A DNA stretch of 64,000 bases from Lytechinus pictus. Its lineage: Eukaryota. Of the stretch, positions 10,001 through 63,625 are shown piece after piece. Position 1 is the first letter of the stretch. Each line of letters starts with the position of its first letter. The DNA lies in assembly GCF_037042905.1 (NCBI RefSeq), contig NC_087251.1:43526001-43590000 (forward strand), given 5' to 3'. The position numbers were made by a program, and so were the translations under genes. The notes below the pieces were generated by a model that saw only the letters and a program-made list of their open reading frames with translations, was not told where the DNA came from and did no database searches.

Positions 10001-13000
10001 CGCTTTCGAAGTGATTATTTAGTTGCATATACATCTTTTTCAGGATAACAAACATTGCCCAGAATGTTCAAATTTTAGGAAAAAATACATAAAATTCCCC
10101 CCCCCAAAAAAAAAAAAAAAAAAATTGCTCGCGCTTCGCGCTCGCATTATGATATCATATATTAATGTTGAATTATAAGAATAAAGCTAAAAAGTGGCCA
10201 TGAGGACTGCTCCTTCAATGAAACAAACAAAAATCATCTTCGAGCGGCCGATCGGGGATTAACATATGGCTGGAAAAAAAAATTGCCCCCCCCCCCCCAT
10301 TGGCGAAGGCTGGATCCGCCCCTGTTGTCCCCCCTACCTTTCGGGACAGATTTCCACCCATGTATATATGTACGTATGTATGTCTGTATGTATGTATGTG
10401 CCTTGAGCAAGAAACAAGATAGATGATTATGTGCGCTATACAAGCACCCTACATATACGCTCCATAGAAGAATTGAATTGAATTGACATGAAAGACGTCC
10501 TCGGATGAAATAATAAAGATCTATTCAATGCATACAGGTGATGATAACGGACAATGGAGAGGTTAACTTTACGACAGCTTTACATGAAGAGATCTTAAGA
10601 CCAGAAGATGACCACCCGGACGTTGTTCCACCATTCAATGCTTATTCTGCGCAAGGAGAGCCTGAGGTAAGAATAATTGTGTACCAAATTGGTGTCCTTG
10701 TGGGACACTCTCAACTTTCACTACAGGATTTTTAAGTTCCCGACCTTTTAGTGGCGTTCATGACATCTTTACGGGTCGTGTGGTCCAGTTGTTAGGGCAT
10801 TGGACTCATAATCGCAAGGTTGTGAGTTCGAATCCCTACTCTGCCATTGTCTCCACTTTGATAAAAAGGCCCGAGAGTAATATCTGCCGTCTATAAGGCC
10901 AGCCGCTATGACTGATTAACCTAGACGTTAAATGTTTCCTAGGTGATCGGTTTTATACCAGCTTGGCTTTTACTAGCAAAAAATGCTGCCCTGCGGAGTT
11001 CCTAAGGGAGTTACCATAAACAGAAATATTCTCTATTCGGACAGAGCCCTGTATTACTTTGCATGATTATGGAAGGAGCGGTGATATATAATGTTGATGG
11101 GCGGGAGTGTTTAAACTGCCCTAAAAGTGACGTCATTTTCCCCTTAATTGAAAAATAGGGGTTTACCACAAGAAAGGATTACCAGTCGTTCTTAAAGTCG
11201 CTCTTAACTTACGAACTGCTTTATGAAGCAGCCCCAAGTATCCTTTTTTAATTACTATCTTTCTACATTCTTTTTTGAATATATATTTTTATCATTTTCT
11301 TGAAAAAAAATCATTTGGGGTTGCCGTCCTAATCCTATAGCAGCATTCCTACAGGATATAATGATAACGGAACTCTCGCGAATAGTCAGACATAGTTACT
11401 TAGCATATTTATAAGAAAAAGAAACTGCTGGAATTTGACTAAAATGCATACCTTGAAAATAGGTTACATTAGTGATTTTTATTACTTTGACAATAGTTAT
11501 ACTATGATAATTGGCAGGTTAAATTCGGACGAATGTTTATTCTAAGATGGAATTCATGTGTAAATGTTCTCTATGTTGCAGCAAAAATTAATAGCAGTTT
11601 AAATATACCCCCCCTCCCAGGAAAAAAAATATATATAAACAAAAATCATAATTATAGTAATAAAAGCTCACATATCGATTCGTAATATAAGACAATAAGG
11701 AGCTTGAAAGTGCTATCCACTTGAGGCTTTGTTTCTTTGTTTTATTCCATTCCAGGGTCCTTTGGTTTATGTCAACTATGGTCGTGCAGAAGACTTTGAA
11801 TGGCTGGCAAAGAATAAACCTGAAATCAACATTACTGGATGCATAGTTATTGCAAGATATGGAAGAGCGTTTCGAGGAAATAAGGTGAGGCTGATGATCT
11901 ATTCCACCCAAGGCCATACGATTATATTTTTCCCTATACAGTTGGGAGCAAAGGGGGGGGGGTGGGCAAGAATATGAAGCATTATTTAAAACATAAATAA
12001 GAAAGGGAGCGAAGTAAATTGAGCTCCTTATATTTTCACAAATTTGATGAAACTGTAAGATTTGGTGCAGATTTAGCTTGCACTTATGTGAAACTTGTAG
12101 ATAAAAAAGTACGTTTTCAAAATTTATGGGGGAAATAGTTACAATAGTCATAATGGTATGAAATAATGATGATAATTATGATAATGATAGAAGTAATATT
12201 CAATGATGATAGTATTTACAATTGCCATAATAGCAGTTATAACAGTCACTCTAACAATAATTATTTTGATAATAACGATAATAATAATGCCGTTAATAAT
12301 CATTGAAAATGATAGAGATAAAATCACAACAATGATAGTAATGATGTTAGTGAAACAAAATTATTATCACTTTCATATAGTAAGAATGCAGTATTACAGT
12401 TTTAAGTTTCACATGCCTTATCACAAAGACCGGCAAATAAACGTTTGGTGTTTTTTTTTACTTTAAGATGCACAACTTAGTTCAATGTAAGCTACGAATA
12501 TTCCTACATAATCATCCCATTATTACTACTTATTAAGTTACTAACTTCAACAAAATTGTCACAGTAAGTTATAACCGAGACAATTAATGTTAAGTGCCCT
12601 ACCATTGATAAACTTACAGGTGCTAGCCGCAGAAGCAGCGGGTGCTATTGGGGTAATTCTATATTCGGATCCTGCCGACTACGCCATTGATGAAGATGTA
12701 GCCGTCTATCCGGACGGATGGTGGTTACCCGATACCGGCGCTCAACGGGGAAATACTTTCGTCAGTGATGCTAAAGGGGATCCCGTCACTCCCGGTTATC
12801 CGGCTAAACGTAATTTTTGCTCCTGCTTAGTAAAGAGAGGGAAAGACAGACAGAAAGAGGGTGGGAGAGGGAGGGAGAGAGGGAGAGAGCACGCGTGTAC
12901 GTGTGATGCATATGGGTGTGGGTCGGTGTGCGGGATAGAGCAAGTGTGTGGGCTAGAACGATCTGAACATGAAGAAAATCAGAACAAAATCACACAAGTT

Positions 13001-30300: not shown

Positions 30301-33300
30301 AAGAAAATACAGATGTCTTCAGAAATAGGTTTTTTTTCAATCACCCCTCTCTCTCTCTTTTAACAAGGTACTAAATGCTCAAAAAGCAGGTGCTTTAGGA
30401 GTAATCATCTATTCAGATCCTGCAAATTATGCTCAAGAAGGTCCAAACGCAGCGTATCCGACTGACTGGTGGTTACCGGATACCGGTACACAGCGAGGTA
30501 ACGTGTTTGTTGGGAGCGCAAAGGGAGATCCGGCTACTCCCGGTTATCCGTCTAAACGTAAGTAACGCACAAGCTCTTTGAAATTCGTGATCATGTAACG
30601 AAAACTATTAATTTTAAGATTTAAAATGTTAATTTTCATCAAAATGGTGAGAGAGATAACAGAAGTACAGCGTGGTATTGTAATGATTAAAAGGGTTATT
30701 TGAATGCACTTTCATGTATGATTTTTTTTATTGTTTGCTTTTGTCCACATTGTTGATGGAGTCTTGTTTTAACTTCAGGTTTTTGTTCTCATGTCCTTTT
30801 CATTTTCAACAGCTTATATGTACCGATTAAACGACTCGGATACCACTCTCCCGACTATTCCGGTGCATCCGATTAGCTACGGAGATGCGCAACATCTGCT
30901 CAAGTAAGAAATGTTCGTCGCTTTAAAGAGATTTATGATTTTTGTATTTGAATAGGCTGAATCGGTATTCCCCATTAGTAAAGAACCTCAACTTCTTACC
31001 ATTCACGTTATCTTATCGAGTTTTACCACGTTAATGTATGAATCTTAAGCATATAGGACCCTAATGCCCATAGTATTCCGACGTCGGGTATAACTTGGGA
31101 CATGGGCTAACTCTGTGCTAAAGAAGCCAAATATATATATATATTTAAAGTGTATACTTTTTATGTTCATTGTGCTCTCTCGTTCACCATGCTAAAATTA
31201 CAAAAAAAAATAAGTCAGTTATTATTTCCAGACAGTTGTTGTGAATGATTTAAGTAACAGATGAGCTGGTTAAATCAAACCTGTACTTTCAGCTAATTAT
31301 TGTGTCACGATTCGCTATCCATAGTTAACCCACCACTTTAGGCCAGAGTCTAAAATTTAACCCGAGATCAGAATATGAGCCTAAATGTCTCATTTTTATT
31401 TGAATGATCACGTTTTCTGTGAATATAGTGAACTTGCCGGTGATGAGGTCCCTGATGACTGGAAGGGAGGTCTCAACATCACCTACAGATTTGGACCAGG
31501 TTTCACTAATCCCAACAGGTCAGAAAGTATTTCGCATCATTCATTATAACATCATGTATAGTCACGTCACATTATGCAGTGAAATATGGTGGTGTCCGAT
31601 TAAAACTGAATATACTAATGTAATACACATTTTAAAAATACTAAGAGAAGTTGCAGTTAATAAAGATAAATATTTAAAATAGACCGAAGTGGAATGCTTA
31701 AGGAAGACTTTTGACCTCAGTGTATGTATTTTTGATACTAAGAAACCATCCATTTTTAATCATTTACAAAATAGAAACTAGTTTTAGAGAATTAAATAGG
31801 ACTACCATATATACATTGCGTTGCTCCTATACGTTGGACATGTTTGATGGAAAGGGTAAAAATGCACATTCGCTCATTCAATTTCAATTTTGTTCATAGA
31901 AATCCATTAAAAACATGTACAAAGAATCATATTTACAAAGTACAAACAAAATAAATATGACTAAACATTGGTCCAATGTTTAGTCATATTTTTTTCTACT
32001 TTGTAAATATGATTCTTTATGAGAGGGAAAGCAAGAAAAAACAAGCCTTTTGATTAGCTGACCCTATAACATAATACTATACAAAGACTTTAATAAAAAC
32101 GATAGAAAAAAATCACAAACTATAACGTAAAAGGGGGTGCCTATATTGCCTAAATAAAATTTATACAAACACACTTGATGACTATTCAAAATAGTATAAT
32201 AATGTAAACGATAATCATCATAACTTGATTTCGTACTTGACAGAAAGGTGAAAATGAGCATACATACTTCACGAGAGATTCGAACCATCTACAACGTGAT
32301 TAGTGTCATCAACGGAGCAGTTGAACCAGGTGAAACTATGATTGTAACTTAAGCCATTTCTCATGCAGAATATTTTCTGGTAGCTTGTTTCCTTAAAAAA
32401 AGTGCAAGCTAGTATATCGATATACTACCGGCTTACTATAATTACCAAAGGAATTTTATACAGCTTATTCTTATTTACCATGTGTAACTTTTGGGGTTAA
32501 GGATTGTACACTTATCTATTAATTAAACGTAAAATAATCAGCAATTAACATTAGTATTCTAAATTACTTTTTCTAATAGATAAATGAAATTCGCATCCGT
32601 CAGAAATTATTATTTTTTTACGTATAATTACAATTTTATTGCAAATCATCTTTTCATTTTTCTTATTCCTTTACAGGGACGAACTTAATGACAATGATGA
32701 ATAAAGATTCAAGATATTACACCGTGATTTCAAATGTTTTTTAATTTTCTGCAGATCGTTACGTGTTGCTAGGCAACCATCGTGATGCCTGGGTTTATGG
32801 TGCTATTGATCCATCCAGTGGAACGGCAGTTCTTATGGAGACAACAAGAGTCTACTCCCAAGTGATAAAAACAGGTAAGCATAGGTTTTAGATATATTTC
32901 TAGTTCTGCATAACTTTTGCACCCCTCTCCTCTTCTCTCCATCTCACTCTCCCTCTCACTTCCTCTTTCTCCCTCACTCTCTCTCTCTTATAGATTCGTC
33001 TATCACTATCTCTTTCGTCTTTTTTTCTCTCCCTCTCCATCGATCTCTATATTAGGCTTCTGTTCTCTCCCTAAAAAATAACTTTAAAAATGTGTACTTG
33101 TTCCCCCTCTCTGTGTTTAAATGTTATCTATTTCTCCTCCATCCCCTTAAAGGTTGGCGACCACGAAGATCTGTGATGTTCTGTAGCTGGGGAGCCGAGG
33201 AGTATGGTCTACTAGGATCTACTGAGTTTGTAGAGGTATAAAAGTCATTTTTAACTTTTCTATTAGTTTATTTACACTAATTATTTAAAGGGGGAGCGAA

Positions 33301-42861: not shown

Positions 42862-42899
42862 GTTACTACTACTACTTCTTACTACTTCTACTACTACTG

Positions 42900-42930
<31 letters not shown>

Positions 42931-42968
42931 TACTACTACTACTACTACTACTAATTCTACTACTACTT

Positions 42969-42999
<31 letters not shown>

Positions 43000-43111
43000 T
43001 ACTACTACTACTACTTCTACTACTACTACTTTTACTACCACCACTTCTACTACTTCCACTACTACTTTACTACTTCTACTACTACTACTTCTACTACTAC
43101 TACTACTACTT

Positions 43112-43163
<52 letters not shown>

Positions 43164-43356
43164 TACTTCTACTACTTCTACTTCTTCTTCTACTACTACT
43201 ACTACTATTAATTCTACTACTACTTTTACTATTACTACTACTTCTACTACTACTACTACTACTACTACCACTTCTACTACTACTCATACTACTACCACTA
43301 CTGTTATAATTACTATAGAAATACTATCAGTACTATTATTACTACTACTACTACTT

Positions 43357-43389
<33 letters not shown>

Positions 43390-43522
43390 TCTCTAACACT
43401 AATACTATTAAACTACTTCTACAAATAGTAGAAGTAGAAGTAGTAGTAGTAGTAATACTACTATTACTACTACTACTACTATTACTACTACTACTACAAG
43501 TAGTAGTAGTAGTATTAGTAGA

Positions 43523-43573
<51 letters not shown>

Positions 43574-43592
43574 TTTAGTAGAAGAAGAAGTA
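42862..43592. repeat. Long (CTA)n tract followed by inverted (TAG)n tract
   Basis: About 560 bp of ctactacta/cttcta, then about 165 bp of gtagtagta. Confidence 0.95.
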
Positions 43593-45308: not shown

Positions 45309-45358
45309 GTAGTAGTAGTAGTAATAGCAGTACCAGCAGCAGCAGTAGTAGTAGTAGC

Positions 45359-45395
<37 letters not shown>

Positions 45396-45538
45396 TTGGT
45401 AGTAGTAGTAGTAGTAGTAATAGCAGTACCAGCAGCAGCAGTAGTAGTAGTAGCAGCAGCAGTATTATAGTAGCAGTAGTAGTAGTAGTAGTAGTAGGTG
45501 ATGTTGTTGTTGCTGTTGTAGTAGTAGTAGTAGTAGTG

Positions 45539-45580
<42 letters not shown>

Positions 45581-45625
45581 ATAATAATACTACTATAGTA
45601 GTAGTAGTACTACTACTAGTAGTAA
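45309..45625. repeat. (TAG/CAG)n microsatellite
   Basis: Runs of agtagtagt and agcagcagc. Confidence 0.95.
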
Positions 45626-46511
45626 GAATATTACTACACTTACTTCATCTACTACTATCACCACCTCTACTTTTAATTCTTTTTCTCTTTCCCTTGATTT
45701 TACTTCAAAACTTTACTACCACCACCTCACAGATATTATATCTATATCACAGATTTGTCCTCAATTGTGCACAGTTATTGTATATTTGAAAATGAATATC
45801 CTATTTGCGACATGCATTCAACGTAGACGCCCAGTGGCCCGACGCGGCTCAACCAACCGTGCTCAACTCGTGAAATTACTTCAAGTTATGATCATATCGT
45901 GCAAACAAATACCAAATTGCCAAAAAATTTATGTATTCTGCGTTGAAATGTAAACATAATGTAATCTTGGTAAATAGATTCTTTTGTGCTCTTTATTCTC
46001 TGAACTTGTTGAATGAATCATACAGAACTGAATATTGGTGTTCGTGACGCCCATTTATATGTTACAGGAGGAGTATTCTCTGGGTCAGCAATAGCGCGGA
46101 ATCCATTGGGATTCATAATTCACATTTCATATCAATTGGGATATAGTGCAGAGTGCATAGAAAATTGAACTCTTGAGAATGTATATTATTGATTACTTTT
46201 TAACCGCAAGAAATACCTTGACGTAGTTTTGTAACCAGTGGCACGTATAATTGTGAATAGTTGTTGTTGTGGAACAGGTAGGGCATTCCAACCTTGACTC
46301 TCAAAAATATAGGCCAATCTGGTATTGCATTGCGGTGGAAAACGGAACACAACTTTTGGTGGTTTATTCACATCTACGCACTAGGACTATAACTTACTAA
46401 AACCCCTGTACAGATTAAAGAGTATTCAATCAAACTTTGCTGAGCTATCGGGGTTATGTACTGGTGTAGCAGAGGTTAGGCCTATCATACACCCCGTCTA
46501 GAGTAGTCATC

Positions 46512-49500
46512 ATGCAGTCTCAGACAAGAGTGTTGATATTTGTCGCCGTGTTCGTGGGTATCGGTTCGTTCGTGTTTGGAATTCTTATCGGACATTTCGG
46601 CATCCCCGACGGTTCGTGCTCTACCTCGCCGTCGTCGTCGCAACCGACCACCACACCGACCGAAAATGAGACCATTAGCGAGCTGATGATCGCGGAGTGT
46701 TCGGCAGAAAACATAGAGGAGAATGTTAGGTAGATTAAAACTTCAATCTTACTGTAATGAGATATTTGTCGTCATGGCAAGGTAGAATTTTCAAATGTAC
46801 CATTAATTTTCCACAGTCAAACATAATATATAGGAACAAAGGTTATATACCAGAAGGGTGTTTCATGAAACTGTTCGTAAGTTACGAGCTACTTTACGAG
46901 GCTCGGGATCCTGTCTTGTGGTAAATGATATAGGCCTAAACCAGATTTGCGGAGGTGTTGATTTAGTTGGGGTTTTTTTTGTTCAAGGAAGGGTTACTCT
47001 AGTTCGTAAAGTCGTCGTAACTTACAAACAGCTTTATGAAACACCTTTACCTGCTTGAATATACAATTGCCACTTCTGTTGGATTAAAGTGTCATGCAGG
47101 TTGAGTGAAATTAGATGTAGCGACGTTTTATTATTTCATACCTCACTCAGAGGGTCTGATTGGCCATTTTCATTTTTATGATAGGCCTATTTAATTACAA
47201 TATGTCAGTGTGATATTATGGCTAATATAAATAGGAGCGAGACTTTTTCAAGAATGAAGTGAATAAAACTAAAATTATATGACAGATATTCATATTTGGA
47301 TACTCCTCTTTTACAGCTATACCTGATGATTATTAAAGACTTTTACTTCACAGCGCACAGCAAGAATTAAGCACGGTTTTTATTTCAGCTAGGTAAATGA
47401 ATTTGGTATGTTTTGTTTCTTTGTTAAAGGAATAGGCGTATAGGCATAGTGGTTGAATTGGTATATAATGGAATGTTTGGAATAAAATTGTTAAACTGTT
47501 GCATTCTGGGACTCTTTTGGTAACATGGAAACTTTTGATTCGTTTTAGGACAACTGTTTAATGTAAGTAAGCCATCAAACCAAACCTCTAAACAGAGGGA
47601 TTCGTTGAGAAAGTATCCAACACTCCTTTGGTCCTCTCTTAATATAGACAATTAAGCAGACGACCTCATATGGCGGGAACACCAGCTGAAAAGGAGAATG
47701 CTGAGATGCTTGTCGATCTCTGGACCGAGTACGGATTCGATTCGGTTCGGTTACTATCCTACGATGTACTCTTAGCTTATCCGGATCCGGAAAATCCGAA
47801 CAAGGTAAGAGTGCAATAAGTATTTTATCGTTTATTTCTTGCAATTATGAGTTGATAATTGCTTATTAAAATAACACAAGCGAAAAAAATCTTCATTATA
47901 TTCATTTACCCTCTACAATAAGTCTACATCCGCAATCAGGAAGTTCTTTAGTCTTGGGCGTATATGCATGAATTAATGTCTTTCTTTCGTATCATATCGC
48001 TCTTTTCTGACATTAAGTAATATCTCTATAAATAGTCACCCCTCGTCTCGCACTTTTCTATTGATCGCGCGAATTTCGCTGCTGTATTTTTGGAATAAAA
48101 AAGCCACCATCGAGATATCATAATCCATACTGTTGTCATTTCAATTTTAAATCCCTAAGGTGATGATAACAGACAATGGAGTACCTGTCTTCACCAGTGC
48201 TCTGACCGAGGCTGTTCTCCGACCTGAGGATAATGATACAGATGCTGTACCACCGTTCAATGCATACTCAGCACAGGGAGAACCAGAGGTATGTTCCATA
48301 TAGTTTACCAAACTAATTGGACGCACAATGCAAAAACTCCGGTGTTGATTAAACACAAGCCCGGAATCTACACTGTTAGAAAATTTATCCTTAAAATAAA
48401 AGAAGTTCCTGCGACAGAGTTTCGAGAATACCTGGTATCTTACCAGATTGCGTAATCTTACAGGAAAATTGGTATTTGGTGTATGGAATCTTACAAATTT
48501 CCTTAAATAAATCACCCTTTTCCCCTTTTTAAACAGACCTGTTCTGTTAAATACCCTTTAACAGAAAACAGAAAAATTTATGTTTTATAATTTACCAATT
48601 ATGTTCCTGTTTTATGAATTTACAGAATGATTCTGTTATTGCTTTTTGCAAAATCTTCCCTTTTTTTCTGTAAAATCAGGGTTTTTTTAACAGTGTATAT
48701 ATATGTCCACACCAGAGAAGTTTTAAAACAACAACAGTTTGGAATCAAACCGATGCTGTTTTGATACTAATTGGTGTTGTATAAACACCTATCTGGTGTT
48801 AGACCAAAAGGAAACTGGTGTTGTTTAACACTTCTCTGGTGTGGACATGAAAAATATATATTCCGGGCTAGTGTTAAATCAACACCAGAGTTTTCACAAT
48901 GCATGTTAAAAAAGACTTGCATATATGTACAATCACTCATGTACAGGAAACCAAAGTCCCGCTCAATATAATCATGATAATGTTCAATTAAAAAAAAACA
49001 TTTCCAAAGACTAGCATACATTTTTGCCATGATTGCCGTAATAAAAAAGAGCGGCGTTGGGGAAGACATTTTTTCTTTCTTCCTTTTTGTTTACACAAAG
49101 ACCGACGTAAATTCGTCACTCTCGTTGACGAATATATTGATAATGATTAATTCGTCTATATTTACGACTCCCTATACAGTATAACACCTGCAGCAAAGAG
49201 TGCTTCGTTTTATGATATTTGTCCACCAACCAACTTTCTTAACACACTTCTTATAGGGTCCTCTGGTCTACGCCAACTATGGCACTGCTGATGATTTCGA
49301 CTGGCTTGCCAAGAATCGACCTGATATCGATATCAACGGGGCAATCGTCATCGTCAAATATGGAAACAACTTCCGTGGACAAAAGGTAATGTATTTTGTA
49401 GATGTCTAATGTTATCTTGATTATTCTTGTCTCATCTAGAGCAGATATGTAACAGCAGATAGATTATAATGTCGATAAACCTGACAGATTCACATAGCTG

Positions 49501-51072
49501 TAAGTGTTTTCTTACAGCATAATACATTATAAAACAGGAATGCATTAATATTTAAAATAGTTTTTCATCAAGTTGAAAAGGAACTTGCAACTCGATGATC
49601 GGAGGAAATAATTACAAAGCAACCTCTTGATTAACACTTCATTCATTCTCCCTTTTCTGTATTTCTCAATCTTTTGAGTTAGGTTTATAACGCACAAAAA
49701 GCAGGTGCTGCAGGAGTCATTATGTATTCGGATCCGGTCAACCATGCACATGATGGTACCGAGGCGGTCTATCCGAATGATTGGTGGCTACCGGATAGCG
49801 GTGTGCAAAGGGGAAACGTGTTTGTTGGAAGTGGAAAAGGAGATCCGGTTACTCCCGGGTATCCGGCTAAACGTGAGTATTCATGGTATTCAGAATATTA
49901 TAACTCAGTTTTCAATATTTCGCAATCACTTCGGTTAGGTTGTAAACGCCCAAATAGCAGGTGCTATTGGAGTTATCATGTATTCGGATCCGAGTAACCA
50001 TGCACATGAAGGCACCGAGGTGGTCTATCCGAATGATTGGTGGCTACCGGATAGCGGTGTGCAAAGAGGGACTGTATTTGTTGGAAGTTCAAGTGGGGAT
50101 CCGGTCACTCCAGGATATCCGTCTAAACGTGAGAATTCGCCAATTCATTTTCTTAAATGTTCTGTGTGCCTTCACCTTTCATGTTGTGCCAATTCACCTA
50201 GTCCATAACCAATACATGTTTAATTATACGGCCGTAGGTAACCTATCTCTGATACCATCGGGCTCTCTTTACTCTTCCTTTAACCTCTATCCTCGAAACG
50301 TAATTACTGACTTGTAACCTTATTAGATTGTTCATTCACTCATTATAGAAGTTCTTCATTCGCGACTCATCTCTATAGCAGAATCACTTTTTTTTCCAAA
50401 CCATAAATGATAGATGAAAGAAATGGTGCATTAAAAAAACAAGATGTCTCTTCCTTCTCAAAATTTTGATTAATCGTCAAAATCTGAATCCCGGTCCTAC
50501 AACCTCCCCGTGTCCTCAGGATCGGGTCAACTATACCTATCCTTTCAATAGAAATCGCGAGACCCTGTTGACCTCTCTAATGAGACGTTGGTATAATATA
50601 TCGCATTCAAGATTGGAATCTAAAAACATATACTTCGATACGATTTCATTATTCATAAAACTCTTATAACTTTGTATTGTGTTCATATCTTTAATCATCA
50701 GCATTTATGTACCGGTTAAACGAATCGGATCCCTCATTACCCACAATCCCGGTTCATCCGATCTCATATGGTGATGCACAACAGTTGTTGAGGTGGGTAG
50801 GAACGCTTTTTTATTATAAAAAAAGGTCCCCTTTTCAGGTAATTGAATTTAAGAAGAGCATGGTTTATTAGAGATATATAACAGAATACAACGAATTGCA
50901 CATGTTTACAATGATGTAACATGTAAAGTCACATTTAAATTGAAAACAGATCATTGCTCTGAGAATGAAGATTCCTTGGGTCCAAAGATGAGTCGATATG
51001 AATTGGTTATTTTAAGATGACTGAAAACCAGCGACAGACTCTCACGCAATTTTGGCAAGGAAAGCCTCGGAC

Positions 51073-51108
<36 letters not shown>

Positions 51109-54100
51109 ATCTGGAGTTTTCCTCTTTCTATACGATATTCCTACTGAGATAATATTCTTATTTTTCTCGAAGCTCATGCATGGTGCCTTGCGTCCACGCC
51201 TCCCTTCAGCTATCTTTGGTGCCAATTATTTGTACCGATTCTTCTTCGAAGACACCAGCATCAATTAGCTGATCCTTGATGTCCATTTAGGAATAATACA
51301 ACTTTCCACAAAGACAGCCTCGAGTAGTCTAGAGTAGCATATATACCTTCAAGCTTTCTACATCCATGCTTCAAGCTTGAGGACTTCGTTGTTCGTCTTG
51401 CGATGAGAGACATCGCTGAACAAAGCGCTCTAGGAGTTTTACTTGCCTCTACTAGAAAAGGGCATCAATATCATTAGTTCTGATTGATTGCTGGTTCATC
51501 TTGAAGAGTTTAGAACTTTACAAACCAATCAATATTTTGTCCAACTCCAGCATGTCGAGTGGCCAGCTGCTCAGGCAGACACTCTTGATGAGTAGAGTTG
51601 AACTGTTGCCGTTAGGCCTCTGAATATTGGTCCTCATTCGACAGCTCATCGTGATCTTGCTTCCAATTTACTGTGGAACTCCCTCAAGACCATGGCGTAG
51701 ATACACCCAGTTCATTTATGGACCTTTCTCTCTAGGTGCTGACTTGAATGAAGTTTGAGTTATGCCTTCGCAGGTCGGTTATCAGTTTAGCAGTCTGCAT
51801 TGGACATGACACGTGGGTATACTGCGTCCAAATTAAGATCAGATGCCAATGTTTGAAGTGTTGCTAGTTCTTAGGCATGTTAGGCCTAATCGTCTGGAAG
51901 CATGCCTTCTGCTTGGAGAGAGTGTTTGGTGATGTCCAACGCTACTTCTGAGCAGTGTTCAAGAAGTAGTCTTACATTTGCCGATCCATGTCCAGGACCC
52001 CTGATCAGACAAAAGTCTTAACCTTCTCTTGAATTAGAATCATCTATGGTGACCTCCTCGATGTTGCCAATAAGGTTTCGAAGCTGTGGCAACATCTGCC
52101 ATTAAACTAGGGGCATGATAAGTATGGCATACCGGTTGTTTCGCCGTGGCAAGGGAAGGGAATTGTACGGCAGAATGCCGAACTTGAAGATTTTGGGGTA
52201 TGCGGGTCATAGAGTTCCTTATCATGGATCTCACACCGGAGACCCTGTGGTCATCCTTCCCTTTTCCAGACCACTCTTGCGCCTTGCTCTGTTTGAGAAC
52301 CTTGCTCTGTAACAGCTTCACTGTTGACGCTAAGTCAATGTCAAGTCTGGTAAGTTCTCTTGCCACATATACAAGAGCACTATACGTCTTTGTGAGCAGA
52401 TGCTTTTGTCTGAACCCCGCCATGTACGTACATTCCAACACGCTTTCTTCAGTGCTGCTGTTATTTTCCTTTCCCTTTCTTATTTCTTGCCGGTTTGTGA
52501 GATGCCCATAGGCCACGGTTAGCCAACTAGGTGATGGCGAGACAAGCTTTTGGTAATCACCTTTTCTTGTTCCTTCTTCATATGTAGAAAACACTTCTCC
52601 ATTCCTGGAGATGATTGCTTGCCATTTGCGGTGCTGCCGAATGTGGCTGTTGCCAAGGGTCATCAACGAGGGACCCATACCTCTGAGTCGTCTACGTGCA
52701 GATTCGAGGGTACGACACCACTACCTCGATCGTTCCACCACTTTATCCATCAATCGCTAATGGGATTGTTCCCGCCTAGCTGCGTTGAATCTGTTTAAAT
52801 TGAAGGTCATAATGTGGAATCAAACCTCAATCCTCAAGACAGGGGACAATCCAAAATCGCACAGTGAACCGTGGCAATGAAAATGACCATAGGATTCTCG
52901 CTTAGGTCTCACCAAAATCTACCTTGTTTGGGAATATAGAAGAAAACGAAAGTCAGAACTCCAGGCCTGCACCCGTACTGCAGCACGGGGATTCGCCTTC
53001 CCTATCGATATTAAGAAGCTTTGTGCATGTACCCTGCGTCAACAATTGTGTTTTGACCATTCCAGGGGCTTGCGCCTTTACAAATCCTACCTTTGCATCG
53101 GGTACATGGCAAAAACTTTTGCTGGCAAGGAGCTAATCGAAGGAGAAAAAGTAGGAAAAGAGGCCAGGGTGAGAAGATAGACAGCAAGGGAGGTAGAGGG
53201 AGCTTATCTCCTCACTCTGGTAAAGAACCAGCCCATCACCATTATATTTCAAAAGTGGGGTTCTTCTCATTGATATTAGTGGTTTTAGAAATAGAGAGAA
53301 TATACATTGACAGAAAATCAGAGATTGAAATCTATCATGACTATAGTTTCTTTAGACCATAGAGTGACGGTGTTTTCCAAGTCGAAGAGGAAATCCTTGC
53401 AAACTATCTACGACGCCATCCAGCAGGCTTTTCTCGGGGTTCTCTTTACGGTAGTTTTTTATTGTAATTAAAGTGTTGTGTTAACTTTTTACTTTAGTGA
53501 AATGAAATGAATTGTCTCGTCTCCGAGATAATGCCACATCATCCAATCGCCACTATGAACCACAAAGTGTCTTGATAATCGCGTTTGATTTAAACCACCA
53601 TCCACTGGGTTTTTTTTTTACCTGGTGGAAAAGAATCGCACAGGCAAATGTAAGTCTAGATGATAGTCCGCGCAAAGATTTCTCTTGTTGGCAGGGAAGA
53701 GGAGTTTTCCGAAAATATTCCTCAATACTTTATTCAAATTTTGTTATCATACCAGTCCCACCTTCTTAATTGATATTTAGTTTACATAATTCAAATAATT
53801 ATGTTTTTAGTGTATCAAAAGTATGCTCTTGAATTAAACACAGACTTGACACTATAGTTAAAAGAACAGTCAGGATTTCCCTCTGTCAGGATCAAACCTG
53901 GGTTTTTGCTTACCTAAAGATTTTGTCACCAATCACCCCAAATCACATAAACAACCTCACATACCCCAAGCATCCTTTTTTAAAGTGAAGAGAGCTATGA
54001 TGTAGTCAAAGTACACATAAGTAACTGCACTGCACAATAATCATTCCGGTTTGAAGTTGTTTATTACAACTATATCATTTCGCTCCAAATGCGATTCATT

Positions 54101-57100
54101 TCCATGGAAATTTCAACAATGAATATAACATAAGTTCACATATAAATGATATTGACTTTCAAAAGATCTTTTAAAAAAATTAAGTTTGATTTTATCAATT
54201 TAGAATTTCAGATTTGGAATAAAAAAAATATTAGTAATGGATGGGAAAAATAATAATTTGTCCGGACAATATTACGGTTTTATTAAATTAAAGAACTTCC
54301 CTGATCAATCATGGATGCAGTCCATAAGATGTCGATGAAAAAATGGTGACAAGTTGACTGAAGTAGCGGTTATCCGATGACCTTGAATACCGATGACGTA
54401 GAATGACGTATGTCGAGGGTTATCGGAGATCCACGAAGTCTGTCGAAGAATGGCGTCACCGAAGTCTAGGCGCTTTCGACCTGTCGCATGACGTCGAGAA
54501 GAAACTAAGCAGAACTCAGGGTTGAATACTCAGGATATGACATCTTTTTTCAGGGCTGACGAAAACTGAAGGCTTGTAAGGATGTAGCCCCAGAATAAAA
54601 TGACTGTCCATGGGTAACAGCTCCCTGACCAAAGGACCCACCATTGTGGGTAGGAAAAACTCCAAAATCAATTGAAACTGAGAGTCATATCTTCCTTGCT
54701 CCTCAGAACACAACCTCTCTCAAAGAGTAACAAAAATGAAAGTGATCCTACTCTCTGTGCACAGCAATTAGGTGCACTGTACAATCAATGGACCTTGGGC
54801 GGGTCTTGGAATGCTAAGTGTTTATTCCACCTGTTACTAGAACCTGGAACCTACAACAAAAGAACCTGCAAGAGCTGAATACATTATAGCCCTTCCTATT
54901 TAAAGTAATTAAATACATAGATTTTTTTATACAACTCAATCAATAATACTGCCATCACAAGGCCAAAAATGAGTAATTTATCAATACCTTTTAAATTTAG
55001 ATTATTTTCTTCATTTAAACACGACTTTCAAAATTACACCATTAATCAATTTTTTCCGGTTAACATTTTTTATGTTAAATAAACAAATTTTAGAATTTGG
55101 CTTTAGTGCAAAAATAAAAAGAATTGCTTGTGACACCTTCACTTTGTTTGATTGAGATTTAGTTTCCATTTTACTTGTTTTAATATTCTGTGAATATAGT
55201 GAACTTGCAGGTGACGAGGTTCCTGATGCTTGGAAGGGAGGTCTCAACATCACATACAGATTCGGACCAGGTTTCACTAATCCCAACAGGTGAGAAAGTA
55301 TTTGCACAGATATTATTTTTTTAACAAGTGCCCACCAAGTTACCGATAATGCCTATAGCATTTCAATTTATTTGAAAGCAGGATAAAAGAGCATTGCATA
55401 TCAAATGCCTTGCTCACAGGTGCGCGGCCGGGGATCGAACCCCGGACTTTTTATGTATAGCCAGGCGCCTTATTAGACCACTCGGCCACGGCACCTCCAC
55501 ATTGATTGATGTCGATTTCACCTCATGATAAAACAATTCAAATTGAAACAGCACAAAATAAATAGGTTCAAACAATAAACTAAAAACTAATTGAATTAAT
55601 TGCCGATGAATGAAGGTAAAGTTATTACAGCAAGAGAAAACTTTGAAACCACATTGCTTCAGAAAGCTTGAAGAGGGGTCATTCCAGTACGCCATAATGG
55701 CGATAGCAGATTGTGTACAAGACAACGCACGGGACGGTTCTGTTATTTTATATTTGCGGTGATTATTTTAATCAGTTGGAAGATGAATTATGATATTGAT
55801 TACATATCACAAATTAACAAGAGGTGAAGGAATCGAATAGTGGATAAAGAGATAAGATGAAACTCATCAAAATGTCGGCATCTGAGTATTAACCAACAAA
55901 AGTAACACCGCTGGAAATTCTTTTCGTCACATTCACTCACAGTCAATCTCCCCATTCTTACTTTTGATGGCAGAAGAAAATGACTATTATGAGATCTAAA
56001 TAAACTTTTTGTACACTTCAATCGTATTTAATTGAAATACAGAAAGGTGAAAATGAGCATACATACTTCAAGAGAGTTTCGAACCATCTACAACGTAATT
56101 GGTGTCATCAACGGATCAGTTGAACCAGGTAACTGATATTCAAATTATTATAGTTGTATGTGATATTTCAGATTTAATTTCAAAACTGAATACTTCTTAG
56201 ATTATATAGATATTTGAACGTTATTTGATCGTAACAAGCGCGGTAATTGAATATGTTTTCAATTTTACCCGATATTATTTTATTCTTTCGGATTTTCATT
56301 ATTCAGATCGATACGTGTTGCTTGGCAACCACCGTGATGCTTGGGTTTACGGTGCAGTCGATCCATCCAGTGGTACAGCCATTCTCATGGAGACAACAAG
56401 GGTCTACTACCAGATGCTAAGTCGAGGTAGGTATAATAGTGATTCATAACATCCCAAGTCATAAGTTATTGAATACAAAATAGAAATTAATTTGTCATGG
56501 AAACAAAACGTTACAGTACACTCTTAACTATCAGATGGAATGAGGCGAAACGTGAGGTATGAGGCAAAATTGCTAAAACGTCGAGAGCGAGGGATTTTGT
56601 GTTAGATTTTGAAAAATATTTAGAGAAAATGTAAGCATTTTTACCCAATTCCTTTCTATTACTCATCTCGTTATTTTTATTTTTTTTGGATCTTGGTCGT
56701 TCCAGATTCCAAGTGCAATATTGTGAGTGATACAAGAAAATATGTTATGTCTTTCCTCTTCTTTTGACTTTTAATTTTGGTTTGTTCAGGTTGGCGGCCA
56801 CGAAGATCTGTGATGTTTTGTAGTTGGGGAGCTGAGGAGTATGGTCTGATAGGATCTACCGAGTTCGTAGAGGTATGGGTTAAAAACCTGGGGAGTGTTT
56901 CGTCAACATTATTTTGGTCGTCTGAAATATTGTCAGATCTGACAACTCTCCCTCATTTTGATTGGCAGAAAAGCGCTGTTTCTATGGTAACTGTCGGATA
57001 TAACGTCCGACAAGTCATTTCATAAAATAATAAATAAAATATTACATGATTTGTATAGCGGACGTATCCACCTTGCTAGGTGCTCGAGGAGTTCCTATAT

Positions 57101-58593
57101 TACCCCGGCTAAGCTAGTCTACTGATTCCGGTGCGCACAGCTTTTTGAGGAAATACTTCCTGCCGGTACCCATTTACCTCACCTGGGTTGAGTGCAGCAC
57201 AATGTGGGTAAATTTCTTGCTGAAGGAAAACACGCCTTGGCTTGGAATCGAACCCACGTCCTTCAGATTGAAAGACGAGAGTCTTAACCACTATATCACG
57301 ACGCTCCCCATGATTACTAGATTTCATTACCTATCTTGAGCTTTAAAACATCTTAATTTGTTCATCATGATATGATTCTATTTCAATCTTTCTATATGCA
57401 ACACATACATAGATCATTGACAGGTGATTGGATGGATGCGCGTAACATGACATTCAGAGGAATCAGCTATAGCACACCGACACTTGACACCGGAGCAATA
57501 GTCGAGTAGTATTGTTTGCTGGAGCAAGGGAGCTGGCAGTGCATTGGGTCGCCAACCTGGTCGCAAACTCATCGTGCGTACCATAATCATGATAATGGTC
57601 TGCGCCTCCATGCTCGTACGTACCCGCATCACTGCGCTGCATACATCACGCGCAGGTATACAGTTTAGCAATATAAGATTCTCAAGAAAGGCCCGAGCTA
57701 GTCATATTCTCCCTTTCCTCTATTTTGGTTATTTTGTCTACATGGACTATGCCCTTTAATGAACCCCCTTTGAATTTTTCGCGAACTAGAAAAAAAGGAG
57801 AAAGGAAAAGAAAAAGAATGGAAAGGGATGAAATATATTATTTTCTGGAAAACATGTTAAATCTATCACAATTTTTTTTTTTCAATTAATTTTCTTTTTG
57901 CTCGTTCGCTTCGCTTTGCAGATTTTAAATAAAATTTTGCCCGATACGCCATGCCATACCCCCATCAAAGGTTTTGGCTCATTATGCTTCTGGTCTCATG
58001 ATTATGATATCTGTGTTTCACATTGACATTCAGGAATACCAAAAAATACTTGGCGAGAGAGCTGTGGCTTATATCAACATAGACAGTGCTGTGGTCGGAA
58101 ACTACACATTTGGGGCAAGGGCAACGCCTCTTTTGCAGCAAGCTGTTTGGGACGCAGCCAAACGGGTAAGTCCTGCATTTCACCCATAGAAAACAAAAGT
58201 GGTTTTGCGTAATTTTATTGAAAAAACGTTGACTTCCGAAAAAAAAAGTTTGATGTCTGATTAGATGTGGGCTGTATAATGTAAACTTGAAATTACAATA
58301 CCAACAAGGTTTTTCGTTGTCACTGACTTCATATCAATACGCCCAAGCCTCCTTCATTGGTTTCAAATGCCCTGATCTCTCCCCCGGCCCCCTCATCCAC
58401 TTCATCCCATCTTTAGATTTAGATTTAGATTGAGATTTTATTTCCGTTCAACATTTTTTTTCAAAATATAATCAAAGTAACAATACATATTCAATATAAT
58501 CGATAATACAGACAAATCAATGAAATTTCGTAACAAATCTCCTCCCTATCTATCTACTCCCTCTCTATCTATCCCATACACTCTCTCTGTCTT

Positions 58594-58633
<40 letters not shown>

Positions 58634-61600
58634 GGTCCCTGATGGTGAGACTCAAGAGCGGTCAGCCTATGATGTCTGGTTGGAACGCGTTCCCGATCCT
58701 AGGACCGGAAAACCTTTGTAAATATTCATCTGAATTACCCTTTTTGCACTTGGAAGACACGAGAGATTGAAAAGCACCTCTAATCTTGCTTATGATAATG
58801 CCTTTCCTAAGAATAGGCCTAAAAAACACAATTGTATGATTAAAAAAAAAACATGCAAACGGATACCACTGTCTCCACCTCGCACTAGTCTGATGTGCAA
58901 ACCCTTCACTCGACTTAAGGGTCTGAATATGCAGCATAAAATGCCTGTAAACTAAATGCCCTCTCGCTCCAGTCTTATATGTGTTAGTCTTTACGCGGAG
59001 ACCCACTGGTTGATCAAAGTTTCAATCAGGGTCTGTGCCTGCAGACTAACCTCGAACCCTGTCCAAAGGAGAGATATTACTTTATTTAGCGATGTAAAAT
59101 GTGGCGTGTGTGCTTTTGTGGTGGTAGGTGTATTCTGCCCTTTCAGACTCTTTGGGCCTGTTGCATCAAACTTTTGCCATTAAAAAAAAAAACATCTGGC
59201 AAATAAAACCAAAAGTCTGGCAAACAAAATCATGCCATTGAAACTTAACACATCGAAAACTCTGGCAAAAAATGCCAGGGTTTTTCTTTTAGGCATCAGG
59301 CCATTAACTGCCAATTCTGTTATTTTTAACATTTTTTTCTCATGATCCTCTTTATTTGGGGTAAAAATTGATACCTCTACAGCACAGCAGTGATCGGATC
59401 GGGAAGTGATTACGCCCCGTTCATGCACAGGATCGGAGTCCCATCAACTGATCTTCTGTATGTCTACGACTTCATAGTAAGACCTTTCATTTGATAGTTC
59501 ATTTACTTCAAATTTTGAATAGAAAGACCTTCAATTGAAAATGCCTTCCTTTATTCATTCCATCTTATAATGATGAGACCTGCATAAAATAAACCTTTTT
59601 TCACAAAATATTAAGGAATTAAAGGCATTTAAGACTCACTCAATACTTATGTTTGAACATAGTTAGTTCTAGGGAGAAAAGAACGAGTTGTAATATCAGG
59701 GATAATTCCCATCTCCCTGGTAACCTAGTAGAACATGTGAAAGGAAATATGGTCGGTCGGTTACAATTACTGTTATTATTTTTAGACTCTTCTATGTTAC
59801 CATTGTCTTAATGATAAAAGAACTCCTTTATGCATTGATAATTTTCACTAATGTGTAAAACAGTTTTTAAAATATATCATATTCAAAAGTATTAAAAAGA
59901 ATTTCAATACCGAAGTTCTTGAAATGCCATTAATAGATTTAAGGATAGACTCGAGTGAAAAAGAAACTGTTTGAAGGTTTTTTTTATCCCTGCAGTCCGT
60001 GACTTATAATCATAAATTGTATATTTCCCCCTACTAACATTACTGAGGAGTGAATTGGTCGTACTTTCTCACGTCATGAATTATGCCATTTATCAGTTTT
60101 TTAATTATTAGATTACGTTACAAAAAGAGTATTGAGATATTCTTTTCTTCTCGTTTCAGAGACTAGGACTATCATCTTATCCCGTGTATCATTCTGTGTA
60201 TGAAAACTTTTACTACGTGAAGAACTTCTTGGATTGGAACTTTTGGCGCCATCAGACTGTTGCGAGAGTTTATATTGAACTCTCGCGAGATCTCGCAGAT
60301 TCCGTTATTCTTCCGCTCGGGATTGTGGATTATGCCGCCAATCTTCGTCTGGCCTCCCTCGGCTTCGAAAGGAACTTTGGAACACTTTTGAGCCAAAATG
60401 GCGTCGTTTTGGGTACAATGTTTTCTATTTCAGCTGCACTATGAAACATTACTTTTTGATGATGTTTCTTTATTTTGATATTGCATTGAGATTCTGACAT
60501 TGCAGCATCCAATATTCTTAACTTTATTCTAGATATGAATATAACTTTTAACTTACAAAAATTGTGCACAAACAAAAGAAGATCATAAAATAAGAACATT
60601 ACGTCCTAAGATTCACGAGGACCTAAGATTCATCTTGGAGTTTTCTAAATTGATTTTTTTTGGGGTTCATATGAAAAAAAAGCAAATGCTCAAAAATTCG
60701 TGAAATTTTTCAAATGAAGCATAGATGGAAGAAATGGGGTCAGACTTATGAAAATTTTAATTGTTTCATGGTATTTCCCAAAAGACTAGTAAATCGTATT
60801 AAAAGTTCTTAAATAGTCTTGAACTTACTTGTTAATGCCATTATTTTTGTAATTATTTATTATAATACATTGTTCTTTGTATACCAACAGCCGGAATATG
60901 ATTTTTATGCCAATGCAATTTTATTTTATTTGAGCATGACAATAAATTTTGAATATCTGAATATCTGACTATTTACAGTTAAGATTCTATAGATTTTAAT
61001 TCATCCACAAAATGGTCAATTCAATTGAATACGAATAAGTATTATTTGACTATTTGCCGTTATGAATTGAGAGACAGAGAGTACCTATTCAGATGAAAAC
61101 ATCCTTAAGAAGTTGTCTATAAAATAAAGAATAAAAAGAAATTAAATAAGTTGCTAATGTTGAATAATGGTTAATACTCAGTATTCTTTTTCTTTTTTTT
61201 TGCAGATGATTTGAATTCAGCTCTGAATAATTTCTCCGCATCTGCGCATAATTTTGAAAGGCAACTTACTGATATCGATTTGAACGAGTGAGTAAATAAT
61301 GTTTTTATTACTTTTCATGATCATCACATAATAATTAAGGATAACAAGAATTCAAATAACAGTATAAATCTGTTTAAAATCACGGTCCTGATTATTGTAC
61401 ATCAACGCCATGTTTGAAAAAAGATAAAAAATCAATTTATTAGATAAAATGTGGCTACATCCACTGCATGATATGTTTTTACCCTTTCTCTTTTCTCATT
61501 TTATTGATGTTTGTTCGTTTTTAATGGATGTGAATAAAGTGAATTTTATTTTGATACCTGGATAATTTTAACGATTCCTATCCTATCCTTTCATCCAATA

Positions 61601-63625
61601 AATAACATTAAGAAAGAATAACATTTCTCACAATTGAATATCAAGTATAAAAAAAATCACATTACTTAAGACAGCTATTCAAGGACTTCCTGGCTACATT
61701 AAAATTATATTAAAATTTAATATTCATATATATATTTTTAAGTAAATAGACATAAGTGTCTTCTCTGTAATACTACACCTATTCAAATTTGTAGATGTTG
61801 CCACCCCTTTTAATTTGTTTTCGTTATCATATTTGATAGATAATCAAACCTGCTTTAGCAGCCATCTGTATAGAAGGACCACTTGTCTAGAAAGACCCAA
61901 ATCTTGGATTCCCTTTAACAGAATTTCCAATCGAAACATATAAAAGAGGAATCTGCCCACCAAGACCACTTGCTAACAAAGACCACTATTCCTGTCGCCC
62001 TTTGATGGTCCTTTACCTACAGATTTCACTGTATTCATATGATGACTATCTTTGATTTTCTTTATCAAGTGCCAATTCATTAAGACGTGTTAATGATCAG
62101 ATGATGCAGCTTGAACGGGCTTTTATTGATCCAGCCGGGCTACCGGACAGAAAATGGATAAGGTAAGATATAGAATATCATTGAAAAAAAAAAACATTAA
62201 TTATTTTATTATTTCTCCTCATTCGCGGAGAAGAAAGAGGAAGAAGTATTTAAAATAACAGAGAAAGACCATGATGACTAAAATTGAGTATGGTAGAAAA
62301 TGAAGAGGAAGGAGAGTAATAGGGAGAAGAGAAAGGAGAAGAAACAAGTGAAACGCCTCTAAGGCAGTCTCGGCTGCATTACGCGTTTTGATAAAGCAGC
62401 AGTGCTGACTTTGAAAACAGCTTTTGAATAATTATTCACGCACAAAAAAATATTCATATGATAATAAACTACTGTCCATTGACCCACAATGGCCTTTAAC
62501 CATGATCATGTGACCTAAGACGTGTGCAAAACAATAATTCCTTCTTGATTATCCTTATGTCTATATTTCATGTTATGATGCCAATTCAACAAATAACCCC
62601 TAACATGGCGATAGCACATTGACCTTAAATGACCTTTGACCTTATTCATGTGACCTGAAACGTGCACAGGATATTCAGGATACATCGTTGCTCTTATGTC
62701 GAAGTTTCATGAACTAGATCAATAAATTGTTAAAGTTATGACAAAAATTCACAAATACCCCCAATATTACCAAAGTTCGTTGACCCTAAATGACCTTTGA
62801 CCTTGGTCATGTGACTTGAAACTTGCACAGGATTTTAAGGAATAATTGATTGCTCTTATGTCAAAGTTTCATGAACTAGATTCATAAAATGTCAAAGTTA
62901 TTAACTTATTATGACAATTCCACAAATATCCCCAACATGGTCAAAGTTCATTGACCCTAAGTGACCTCTGACCTTGGTCATGTGGCATGAAACTCTGGCA
63001 GGATGTTTAGTAATAGTTGATTACCCTTATGTCTAAGTGTCATGAACTAGGTCCATACATTTTGTAAGTTATGACATTTCCAAAACTTAACCTTGGTTTA
63101 GATTTCAATGTTGACGACGTCGCCACCACCGCCGAAAAAGCGGCGCCTATAAGTCTCGCTCTGCTATGCAGGACAGACAAAAAGAAAACACACGTATCTA
63201 CTTTAAAAGCAAACTAGTATAACAGAATAACAAAGGTCTTGAACTTTATCCAACACTTTCAAAGCCTTCAAAAAGTACATACTCCAGATACATATTATAA
63301 GTACTGCAGTGTTATTGCATCATCAGTATCATTTTAAAAATTATTGTAATTATTATCATTATTATTGTTTTCGCTTTTCTTCTTCCATTTTCTTATTATT
63401 TTCATTTTCCACTATCAATCACAAAACAGACATATCATCTATGCACCAAGTAGTGTCGATTCCTATGCCGGTACGGAGTTTCCTGCCGTTGTCGATTCTT
63501 TGTATCTCATTGCAGACGACCCCGATCAACAGGCTCGATGGGACAATGTGAAAAAGCAACTCGCCATATTAACATTCACGATCCAATCAGCAGCCAGTAC
63601 ACTCAATGACGTCACACAACTTTAA
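46512..63625 (+). CDS. Gene 3: glutamate carboxypeptidase II / NAALADase-family (M28B) paralog with duplicated exon 5, ~741 aa per isoform
   Basis: Exons: 46512-46729, 47648-47804, 48160-48288, 49257-49385, [49683-49872 OR 49939-50128], 50702-50792, 55200-55289, 56043-56128, 56307-56426, 56790-56872, 58034-58165, 58635-58717, 59383-59476, 60160-60412, 61206-61287, 62070-62162, 63430-63625 (sum 2226 nt with one exon 5). Motifs [44 protein letters not shown] are intact. Confidence 0.92.
46855..47046. mobile_element. MITE in gene 3 intron 1
   Basis: ggtgtttcatgaaactgttcgtaagttacga ... tcgtaacttacaaacagctttatgaaacacc. Confidence 0.7.
48324..48902. mobile_element. Palindromic MITE interrupted by a second MITE (48371-48695)
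   Basis: Outer arms aaaactccggtgttgattaaacacaagcccggaat / attccgggctagtgttaaatcaacaccagagtttt. The inner element is TA-flanked and homologous to 40657-40941. Confidence 0.75.
49683..49872 (+). CDS. Gene 3 exon 5a (candidate mutually exclusive exon)
   Basis: ttag|GTT...AAAC|gtgagt, 190 nt, open frame: [63 protein letters not shown]. Confidence 0.9.
49939..50128 (+). CDS. Gene 3 exon 5b (candidate mutually exclusive exon)
   Basis: ttag|GTT...AAAC|gtgaga, 190 nt, open frame: [63 protein letters not shown]. Confidence 0.85.
51130..52800 (-). mobile_element. Degenerate RTE-type LINE in gene 3 intron 6
   Basis: The minus-strand translation contains endonuclease-like [18 protein letters not shown] and [21 protein letters not shown] is higher than the flanks and the frames are broken. 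Boundaries are approximate. Confidence 0.65.
55405..55499 (-). mobile_element. tRNA-derived SINE head
   Basis: Minus strand ggaggtgccgtggccgagtggtctaa...ggttcgatccc (A and B boxes). Confidence 0.65.
57050..57310 (-). mobile_element. tRNA-derived SINE (second family)
   Basis: Close match to 22105-22354. Confidence 0.8.
58586..58632. repeat. (CT)n tract forming the exon 12 polypyrimidine tract of gene 3 (equivalent tract at 34574-34600 in gene 2)
   Basis: ctctctct...ag|GT in both genes. Confidence 0.85.
62343..63182 (-). mobile_element. Helentron/DINE-1-like element, inverted homolog of 25255-26608
   Basis: aacaagtgaaacgcctct..ggcagtctc and gcggcgcctata.gtctcgctctgctatgcagg are reverse complements of the ends of 25255-26608. 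It has fewer internal tandem units. Confidence 0.75.

Follow-up and report, generated by a model that had tools for sequence, protein, structure and literature searches.

A duplicated substrate-pocket exon in a glutamate carboxypeptidase II-like gene of Lytechinus pictus, a candidate alternative exon pair with an annotated counterpart in a urchin paralog

In a glutamate carboxypeptidase II (GCPII)-like M28B peptidase gene of Lytechinus pictus, a 190-nt exon that codes for the last part of the PA (apical) domain and for the S1′ pocket-lining loop has undergone tandem duplication, giving a default copy (5a) and an intact second copy (5b) that may serve as a minor or condition-specific mutually exclusive exon. 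Use of 5b would replace Asn with Thr at the position of human GCPII Asn257 and Gly-Lys with Ser-Ser four to five residues later, and would thereby give a new shape to the prime-side pocket of an enzyme in which the glutamate-binding Lys699 is already missing. Whether 5b is really used is finely poised, and we place it just short of an even chance; in a paralog 2.8 Mb away, the same exon is an annotated alternative pair in two urchin genera.

The window (the whole 64,000-nt stretch of DNA that was analysed) is eukaryotic, with a GC content of 0.30-0.43, and carries three tandem + strand genes with a shared exon plan, identified by a tblastn search of a full-length relative against the window (Table 1). 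A fourth member of the array (L004, G000:C7:43514831-43515019) lies 11 kb upstream of the window and has a gene-1-like exon 5, and at least 13 copies of the exon-5 peptide were found by a search of the species' own genome; more family copies are present on contigs C1 and C4, the latter including two, ~82 kb apart, with an identical exon-5 peptide. A spliced model of gene 3 was built on protein P0001, and its translation with 5a is identical over all 741 residues to the L. pictus RefSeq model P0157, for which Pfam assigns PA (168-256), Peptidase_M28 (352-553) and TFR_dimer (618-736) domains, all above curated cut-offs.

Several further features of the window are recorded as observations in their own right. 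Genes 2 and 3 are separated by ~2.8 kb of low-complexity, microsatellite-like sequence (window 42800-45650) with strong GC and AT skew and spurious long poly-Ser/Thr/Val/Leu open frames on both strands. Alike translated stretches at window 40628-40813 (-), in a gene 2 intron, and 48147-48557 (-), in a gene 3 intron, are probably a dispersed repeat or transposon fragment. A 226-aa open frame (window 52040-52720, -) within the 4.4-kb intron 6 of gene 3 occupies the most GC-rich part (0.41-0.43) and had no Pfam match at E <= 0.001.

Table 1. Genes of the array and features of the duplicated exon (positions in the window)
Feature	Position	Strand	Remarks
Gene 1	1130-23196	+	
Gene 1 exon 5, QRGN..AKGDP	12620..12809	+	Single copy; 190 nt
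Gene 2	27322-41673	+	
Gene 2 exon 5, QRGN..AKGDP	30368..30557	+	Single copy; 190 nt
Gene 3, GCPII/NAALADase-like M28B peptidase	46512..63625	+	17 exons; 741 aa with exon 5a
Gene 3 exon 4	49257..49385	+	Ends ..NNFRGQK, the Phe209/Arg210 equivalents
Exon 5a, QRGN..GSGKGDP	49683..49872	+	190 nt; exon used in all RNA seen
45-nt tract in 5a	49766..49810	+	Identical to 50022-50066; probable gene-conversion tract
AAC, Asn	49815..49817	+	Human GCPII Asn257 equivalent by alignment to GCPII chains; position 256 of P0157
GGA AAA, Gly-Lys	49833..49838	+	Aligned with GCPII Gly263-Ala264, pocket loop
Spacer, 5a donor to 5b acceptor	49873..49938	+	66 nt
Exon 5b, QRGT..GSSSGDP	49939..50128	+	190 nt; frame intact; canonical AG/GT; not seen spliced
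ACT, Thr	50071..50073	+	At Asn257-equivalent position
TCA AGT, Ser-Ser	50089..50094	+	Replacing Gly-Lys
Gene 3 exon 6	50702..50792	+	

Exons 5a and 5b share 160 of 190 nucleotides and 53 of 63 residues with no indels; each copy has ttag directly before it and gtgag directly after it. A GGTACC (KpnI) site occurs in 5a and not in 5b. A unit of 256 nt was duplicated, which takes in, besides the exon, ~35 nt of the intron before it and ~10 nt of the intron after it, and ~9 of the 35 nt differ between the copies of the duplicated intron flank (hand count on the alignment). An earlier note on this DNA had described Asn in 5a and Thr in 5b at a pocket position, with ~45 nt just upstream identical between the copies; both observations were borne out, the identical tract measuring exactly 45 nt. 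When 30 mismatches were placed at random over 190 positions, an identical run this long arose in 0.41% of 100,000 placements, and third codon positions differ at 0 of 15 sites inside the tract against 17 of 48 outside it. Because 5a differs from gene 2 at 12 of the 45 nucleotides, the tract is not kept by family-wide nucleotide constraint and resembles a gene-conversion tract, across which 5a and 5b may exchange sequence by gene conversion or unequal recombination. An assembly artefact was rejected as the source of the second copy, as a contig of run X15 (50037-50554) matches the 3′ part of 5b and the adjoining intron with no differences, unless X15 is the assembled sample itself.

The identification of the Asn/Thr residue as the Asn257 equivalent, also made in the earlier note, is supported by an alignment that is gap-free through GVQRGN..GDP.TPGYPA; the exon peptide aligns with GCPII chains with a single one-residue gap, 16 positions upstream of the variable residue, and in the 750-residue chain 9hlw_A, matched at 214-274, exon residue 45 falls on Asn257 by hand count. 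An AlphaFold model of isoform a (pLDDT 93.4, pTM 0.89) superposes on human GCPIII and GCPII crystal structures with TM scores of 0.95-0.96 (target-normalised) and an rmsd of 1.7-1.9 A over ~694 columns at 44-45% identity. In the parts of the literature cited here, Asn257 is listed among the residues crucial in substrate recognition (PMC10794815) and placed in the hydrogen-bond network of the S1′ pocket (PMC12207593; PMC8674901), and a computational study describes the backbone amides of Leu261-Ala264/Gly265 as binding extended P1′ carboxylates (PMC8674901, in the section cited). Taken together, these assignments mean that where 5a and 5b differ in the latter half of the exon, both groups of changes lie within one pocket-lining loop; the exchange of Gly-Lys for Ser-Ser, at the positions of GCPII Gly263/Ala264, had been missed in the earlier note and changes the same loop. 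A literature search for the GCPII mutant N257D found no GCPII paper, and GCPII mutagenesis was reportedly described by Mlcochova et al. (FEBS J 2007).

The PA + M28 + TFR_dimer architecture is common to gene 3 and to human GCPII (FOLH1/PSMA) and GCPIII (NAALAD2) of MEROPS M28B. Zinc ligands (His377, Asp387, Glu425, Asp453 and His553), catalytic Glu424, and Arg210, Tyr552 and Tyr700 are kept in gene 3, Arg210, which binds the C-terminal alpha-carboxylate, being part of the NNFRGQK motif with which exon 4 ends. By domain content, zinc ligands with Glu424, and modelled fold, the product is therefore predicted to be a catalytically competent member of the GCPII-like M28B peptidases. In the published excerpts relied upon, Lys699 is the main determinant of glutamate preference and Arg463/534/536 form the acidic-P1 patch (PMC10794815; PMC12207593). 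Compared with human GCPII, 5a keeps Asn257, whereas gene 3 has Ser for Lys699 (as does gene 2, with His in gene 1) and Gly/Asp/Leu for Arg463/Arg534/Arg536 (P0157). With Lys699 replaced by Ser and the arginine patch gone, the glutamate-specific S1′ charge and the acidic-P1 patch are missing, and from these positions the gene 3 product would not be a glutamate-specific enzyme of the GCPII type, which hydrolyses NAAG and folyl-gamma-Glu. The contact of Asn257 with the glutamate gamma-carboxylate, invoked in the earlier note from the human enzyme, consequently does not transfer to an enzyme without Lys699 and the arginine patch.

A closer parallel for the pocket of a 5b isoform is found in the GCP2 orthologues of Caenorhabditis elegans, in which, according to the part of the published account cited, the zinc site is kept, Ser replaces Asn257 in all three, Ser or Trp stands in place of Lys699, and there is no arginine patch (PMC10794815). 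These orthologues are described by their authors, in the same part of that account, as proficient hydrolases with specificities unlike those of the human enzyme (PMC10794815). A 5b isoform pocket, with Thr/Ser at 257 and Ser at 699, would be of this kind; unlike the putative exon choice in gene 3, the C. elegans variation, as far as that account goes, is between genes.

The description of 5b as the derived form holds locally, since genes 1 and 2 and L004 read QRGN..AKGDP, but is misleading family-wide. When 1.84 billion cluster representatives were searched and the 149 best family representatives aligned, the column after QRG contains Ser in 78, Thr in 40 and Asn in 11, so that Ser or Thr is present in 118 of 149 (with 'RG' preceding the column in 110 of the 149). 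Lys lies outside the eight commonest states of the Lys699 column, and among the first 64 of the 149 representatives the combination of Asn with Lys is confined to P0012, whose sequence resembles that of the vertebrate enzyme; common 257/699 pairs are Thr with Ser (12 representatives) and Ser with Ser (11). On this alignment, the Thr of 5b restores the usual state of the family and is not exotic.

The anatomy of the pair fits mutually exclusive exons: 5b is 3n+1 nt long, 66 nt separate it from 5a, and the scores of its splice sites are typical of real sites. A transcript with both 5a and 5b, or with neither, shifts frame into early stops, and the two exons cannot coexist in a productive mRNA. 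The shortest of the 47 introns modelled in the three genes is 178 nt, and direct splicing from 5a to 5b should thus be hindered, the 66-nt spacer being well below the intron sizes used. Scored with a position-weight matrix derived from the same 47 introns, the donors of 5b and 5a both rank 21st of 47 and their acceptors 12th and 16th respectively; among gene 3 decoys, 3% of GT and 11% of AG dinucleotides score as high. Of inverted repeats that might form competing RNA pairings around the two exons, only three weak pairs of 12-13 nt were found. It is on this anatomy that 5a and 5b may be termed putative alternative exons.

Evidence from RNA was drawn from contigs of runs X1 and X2 (one study) and X15 (another study), and from raw reads of X19; the three contig runs are not annotated as RNA, and their spliced joints prove RNA content. 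The sample is small, rare variants are lost from contigs, and the X19 data cover ~6% of that run. Joints 49385 to 49683 and 49872 to 50702 are present in all three contig runs, at depths of 142.7 (X1), 39.4 (X2) and 17-20 (X15), and the joint of 5a with exon 6 is spanned by two raw X19 reads. Spliced 5b was found in none of the four runs (contigs of X1, X2 and X15; ~6% of X19 raw reads), against four of four for 5a, and in X1 no 5b contig accompanies the 5a path of depth 142.7. The sole 5b sequence in an RNA run is the X15 contig named above, which at a depth of 2.25 runs through the 5b donor, unspliced, into the downstream intron. Exon 5a is the default exon, and the use of 5b in the sampled RNA is bounded as low, not as zero.

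Protein collections give a comparable picture. No protein with 5b was found in a collection of 5.8 billion clusters, nor any with 5b among short protein fragments, a collection that also holds no Logan-derived gene 3 5a protein and so offers no positive control. The 90% cluster of gene 3 has three members, namely P0157 (5a), the L. variegatus orthologue P0156 (5a-type, QRGN..NGKGDP) and P0001 (hybrid, discussed below). In the L. variegatus annotation, isoforms X1 and X2 are listed for the paralog, and for the gene 3 orthologue only a 5a-type protein, which counts against 5b use. The splice-controlled specificity switch proposed in the earlier note is thus favoured by anatomy and by family precedent, and opposed by the finding that only the path from exon 4 through 5a to exon 6 is spliced, in four of four runs; it is a plausible hypothesis with structural support.

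The same RNA and protein results would be expected if 5b were a silent relic, spliced not at all or negligibly and kept intact by a youngish duplication and by conversion repair from 5a, to which the 45-nt identical tract points; we regard this as quite possible, if on balance doubtful. Divergence between the copies (Sd 14.5, Nd 15.5; pS 0.33, pN 0.107) gives an omega of 0.27, so that non-synonymous divergence is about one-third of synonymous, which speaks against a silent relic, as do the 190 nt without indels and splice sites as good as those of 5a. Derived residues are, on the other side, in excess on 5b: hand parsimony counts about twice as many non-synonymous steps on 5b as on 5a, although outgroup polarising is ambiguous at several sites, and in a tree of 64 columns the terminal branch is 0.099 for 5b and 0 for 5a. 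Symmetrical evolution of the two copies was considered and rejected on these grounds, the hand count being ~2:1 towards 5b and the tree placing all terminal change there. In a neutral simulation of 18 substitutions, the non-synonymous share was at or below the observed 0.59 in 5.6% of trials and 48% of trials were stop-free, so that at 0.05 the test does not reject neutral evolution along the 5b branch, and about half of neutral copies would be expected to lack stops. The sequence comparison therefore suggests constraint on 5b, with some sign of relaxed constraint too. Further points against a silent relic are the small RNA sample, from which rare variants are dropped by contig assembly, the presence of a 5b-type loop in the annotated L. 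pictus proteins P0001 and P0002, and the paralog, in which the same exon works as an alternative pair.

In the older L. pictus models P0001 and P0002, exon 5 resembles 5a as far as the identical tract and 5b from there on (QRGS..SSSGDP). Of the 741 positions, 14 differ between P0001 and P0157; six of these are among the 63 residues of exon 5, and four of those six are 5b-like (N256S, G262S, K263S and A273S); the switch point lies between exon residues 28 and 45, which is the stretch that the identical tract covers. A loop of the 5b type, with Ser and not Thr at the pocket position, therefore sits in annotated coding sequence. The hybrid exon, observed in protein models, is consistent with recombination of the two copies within that tract; collapse of the 256-nt repeat in the assembly is another possible origin. 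In P0002 the N-terminal half is gene-3-like and the C-terminal end gene-2-like, which suggests that this model is a chimera or that its locus was misassembled.

These hybrids raise the alternative that 5b acts mainly as a recombination partner, unequal crossing-over or conversion at the tract generating alleles in which the one expressed exon has a 5b-type loop, so that the Asn/Thr/Ser variation would be allelic and not splice-controlled. The concentration of P0001-P0157 differences in exon 5, the switch point within the tract and the order of 5a-like then 5b-like residues all agree with such an exchange, yet the hybrid reads S, SS, S where 5b reads T, SS, S, and with Ser in place of Thr at the pocket residue it does not result from straightforward recombination of the two copies in the window; deletion, conversion and repeat collapse would moreover look alike in protein models. 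Recombination as the main role of 5b is in our judgement distinctly improbable, and is in any case compatible with 5b splicing too.

Family precedent for mutually exclusive use of 5a and 5b comes from a second adjacent pair of this exon, overlooked in the earlier note, in a gene encoding a 782-aa NAALAD2-like protein (L. pictus P0160) at G000:C7:46398709-46399483 (L007 1486-1678 and 2068-2260). As in gene 3, the exons stand in tandem with equal 3n+1 lengths (193 nt each) and AG/GT on both; in contrast to gene 3, the spacer is 389 nt, both versions are annotated isoforms, Ser occupies the 257 position in both, and the duplication is much older, with 129 of 193 nucleotides identical, pS 0.84 and pN 0.16. 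Across the central 27 residues the two versions have the same amino acids although many synonymous changes separate them, indicating purifying selection on both copies. The RefSeq isoforms X1 and X2 of L. variegatus (P0278/P0279) and of Strongylocentrotus purpuratus (P0275/P0158) differ by 14 residues each, all in this exon, which is thus, per annotation in two genera, an established alternative pair. The differences between its versions are greatest in the loop right behind QRG(S), which reads LHIPMGLG in one and LYSYQSVG in the other, and over the first ten residues.

Both L. pictus models of the paralog carry the first version only, so that the annotation of this species can miss such isoforms, and the second version is likely an unannotated isoform in the L. 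pictus genome. In the 64-column tree, the paralog's exon versions from different species cluster with their own type (support 93/86 for one type) within a clade supported at 95/87, and 5a with 5b form a clade of their own (91/96); the separate clades indicate that the duplications in the paralog and in gene 3 were independent. A literature search found no description of alternative exons of this family in urchins. In the sea star Patiria miniata, isoforms X1 and X2 (P0284/P0171) also differ by 14 residues, in another exon, which encodes the GSGSD motif (Gly518 region) and a segment aligned with the GCPII Arg534/Arg536 patch, and which may be an echinoderm example of a different sort of pocket-exon swap.

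A wider reading would have urchin GCPII-like peptidases vary the pocket loop by repeated duplication of this one exon, the old paralog pair being mutually exclusive in at least two genera and the younger 5b of gene 3 acting both as a conditional exon and as a recombination donor, with Asn, Thr and Ser all present at the Asn257-equivalent position in one species by way of splicing and of allelic exchange; taken whole, this seems unlikely.

The human GCPII and GCPIII genes are not known to have a duplicated copy of this exon. Mutually exclusive exons that arose by tandem duplication are familiar from exons 2 and 3 of alpha-tropomyosin, with their short spacer, and from FGFR2 IIIb/IIIc, in which ligand specificity is changed. 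Exons 5a and 5b resemble such pairs in being adjacent homologues of equal length with a frame clash and a spacer too short for splicing between them, and in that choosing between them would alter a binding surface, and differ in that use of 5b is only inferred. Should 5b be used, one gene would yield two peptidases differing at a residue that touches the substrate in the human enzyme, adding a splice-level layer of specificity to an already expanded family; for annotation purposes, 5b is a candidate alternative exon and not an established one. The firmer result is the paralog, whose annotated isoforms in two urchin genera, already in RefSeq, swap exactly the pocket-loop exon, and which thereby offers a testable natural experiment on the residues of P1′ specificity in M28B enzymes without Lys699.
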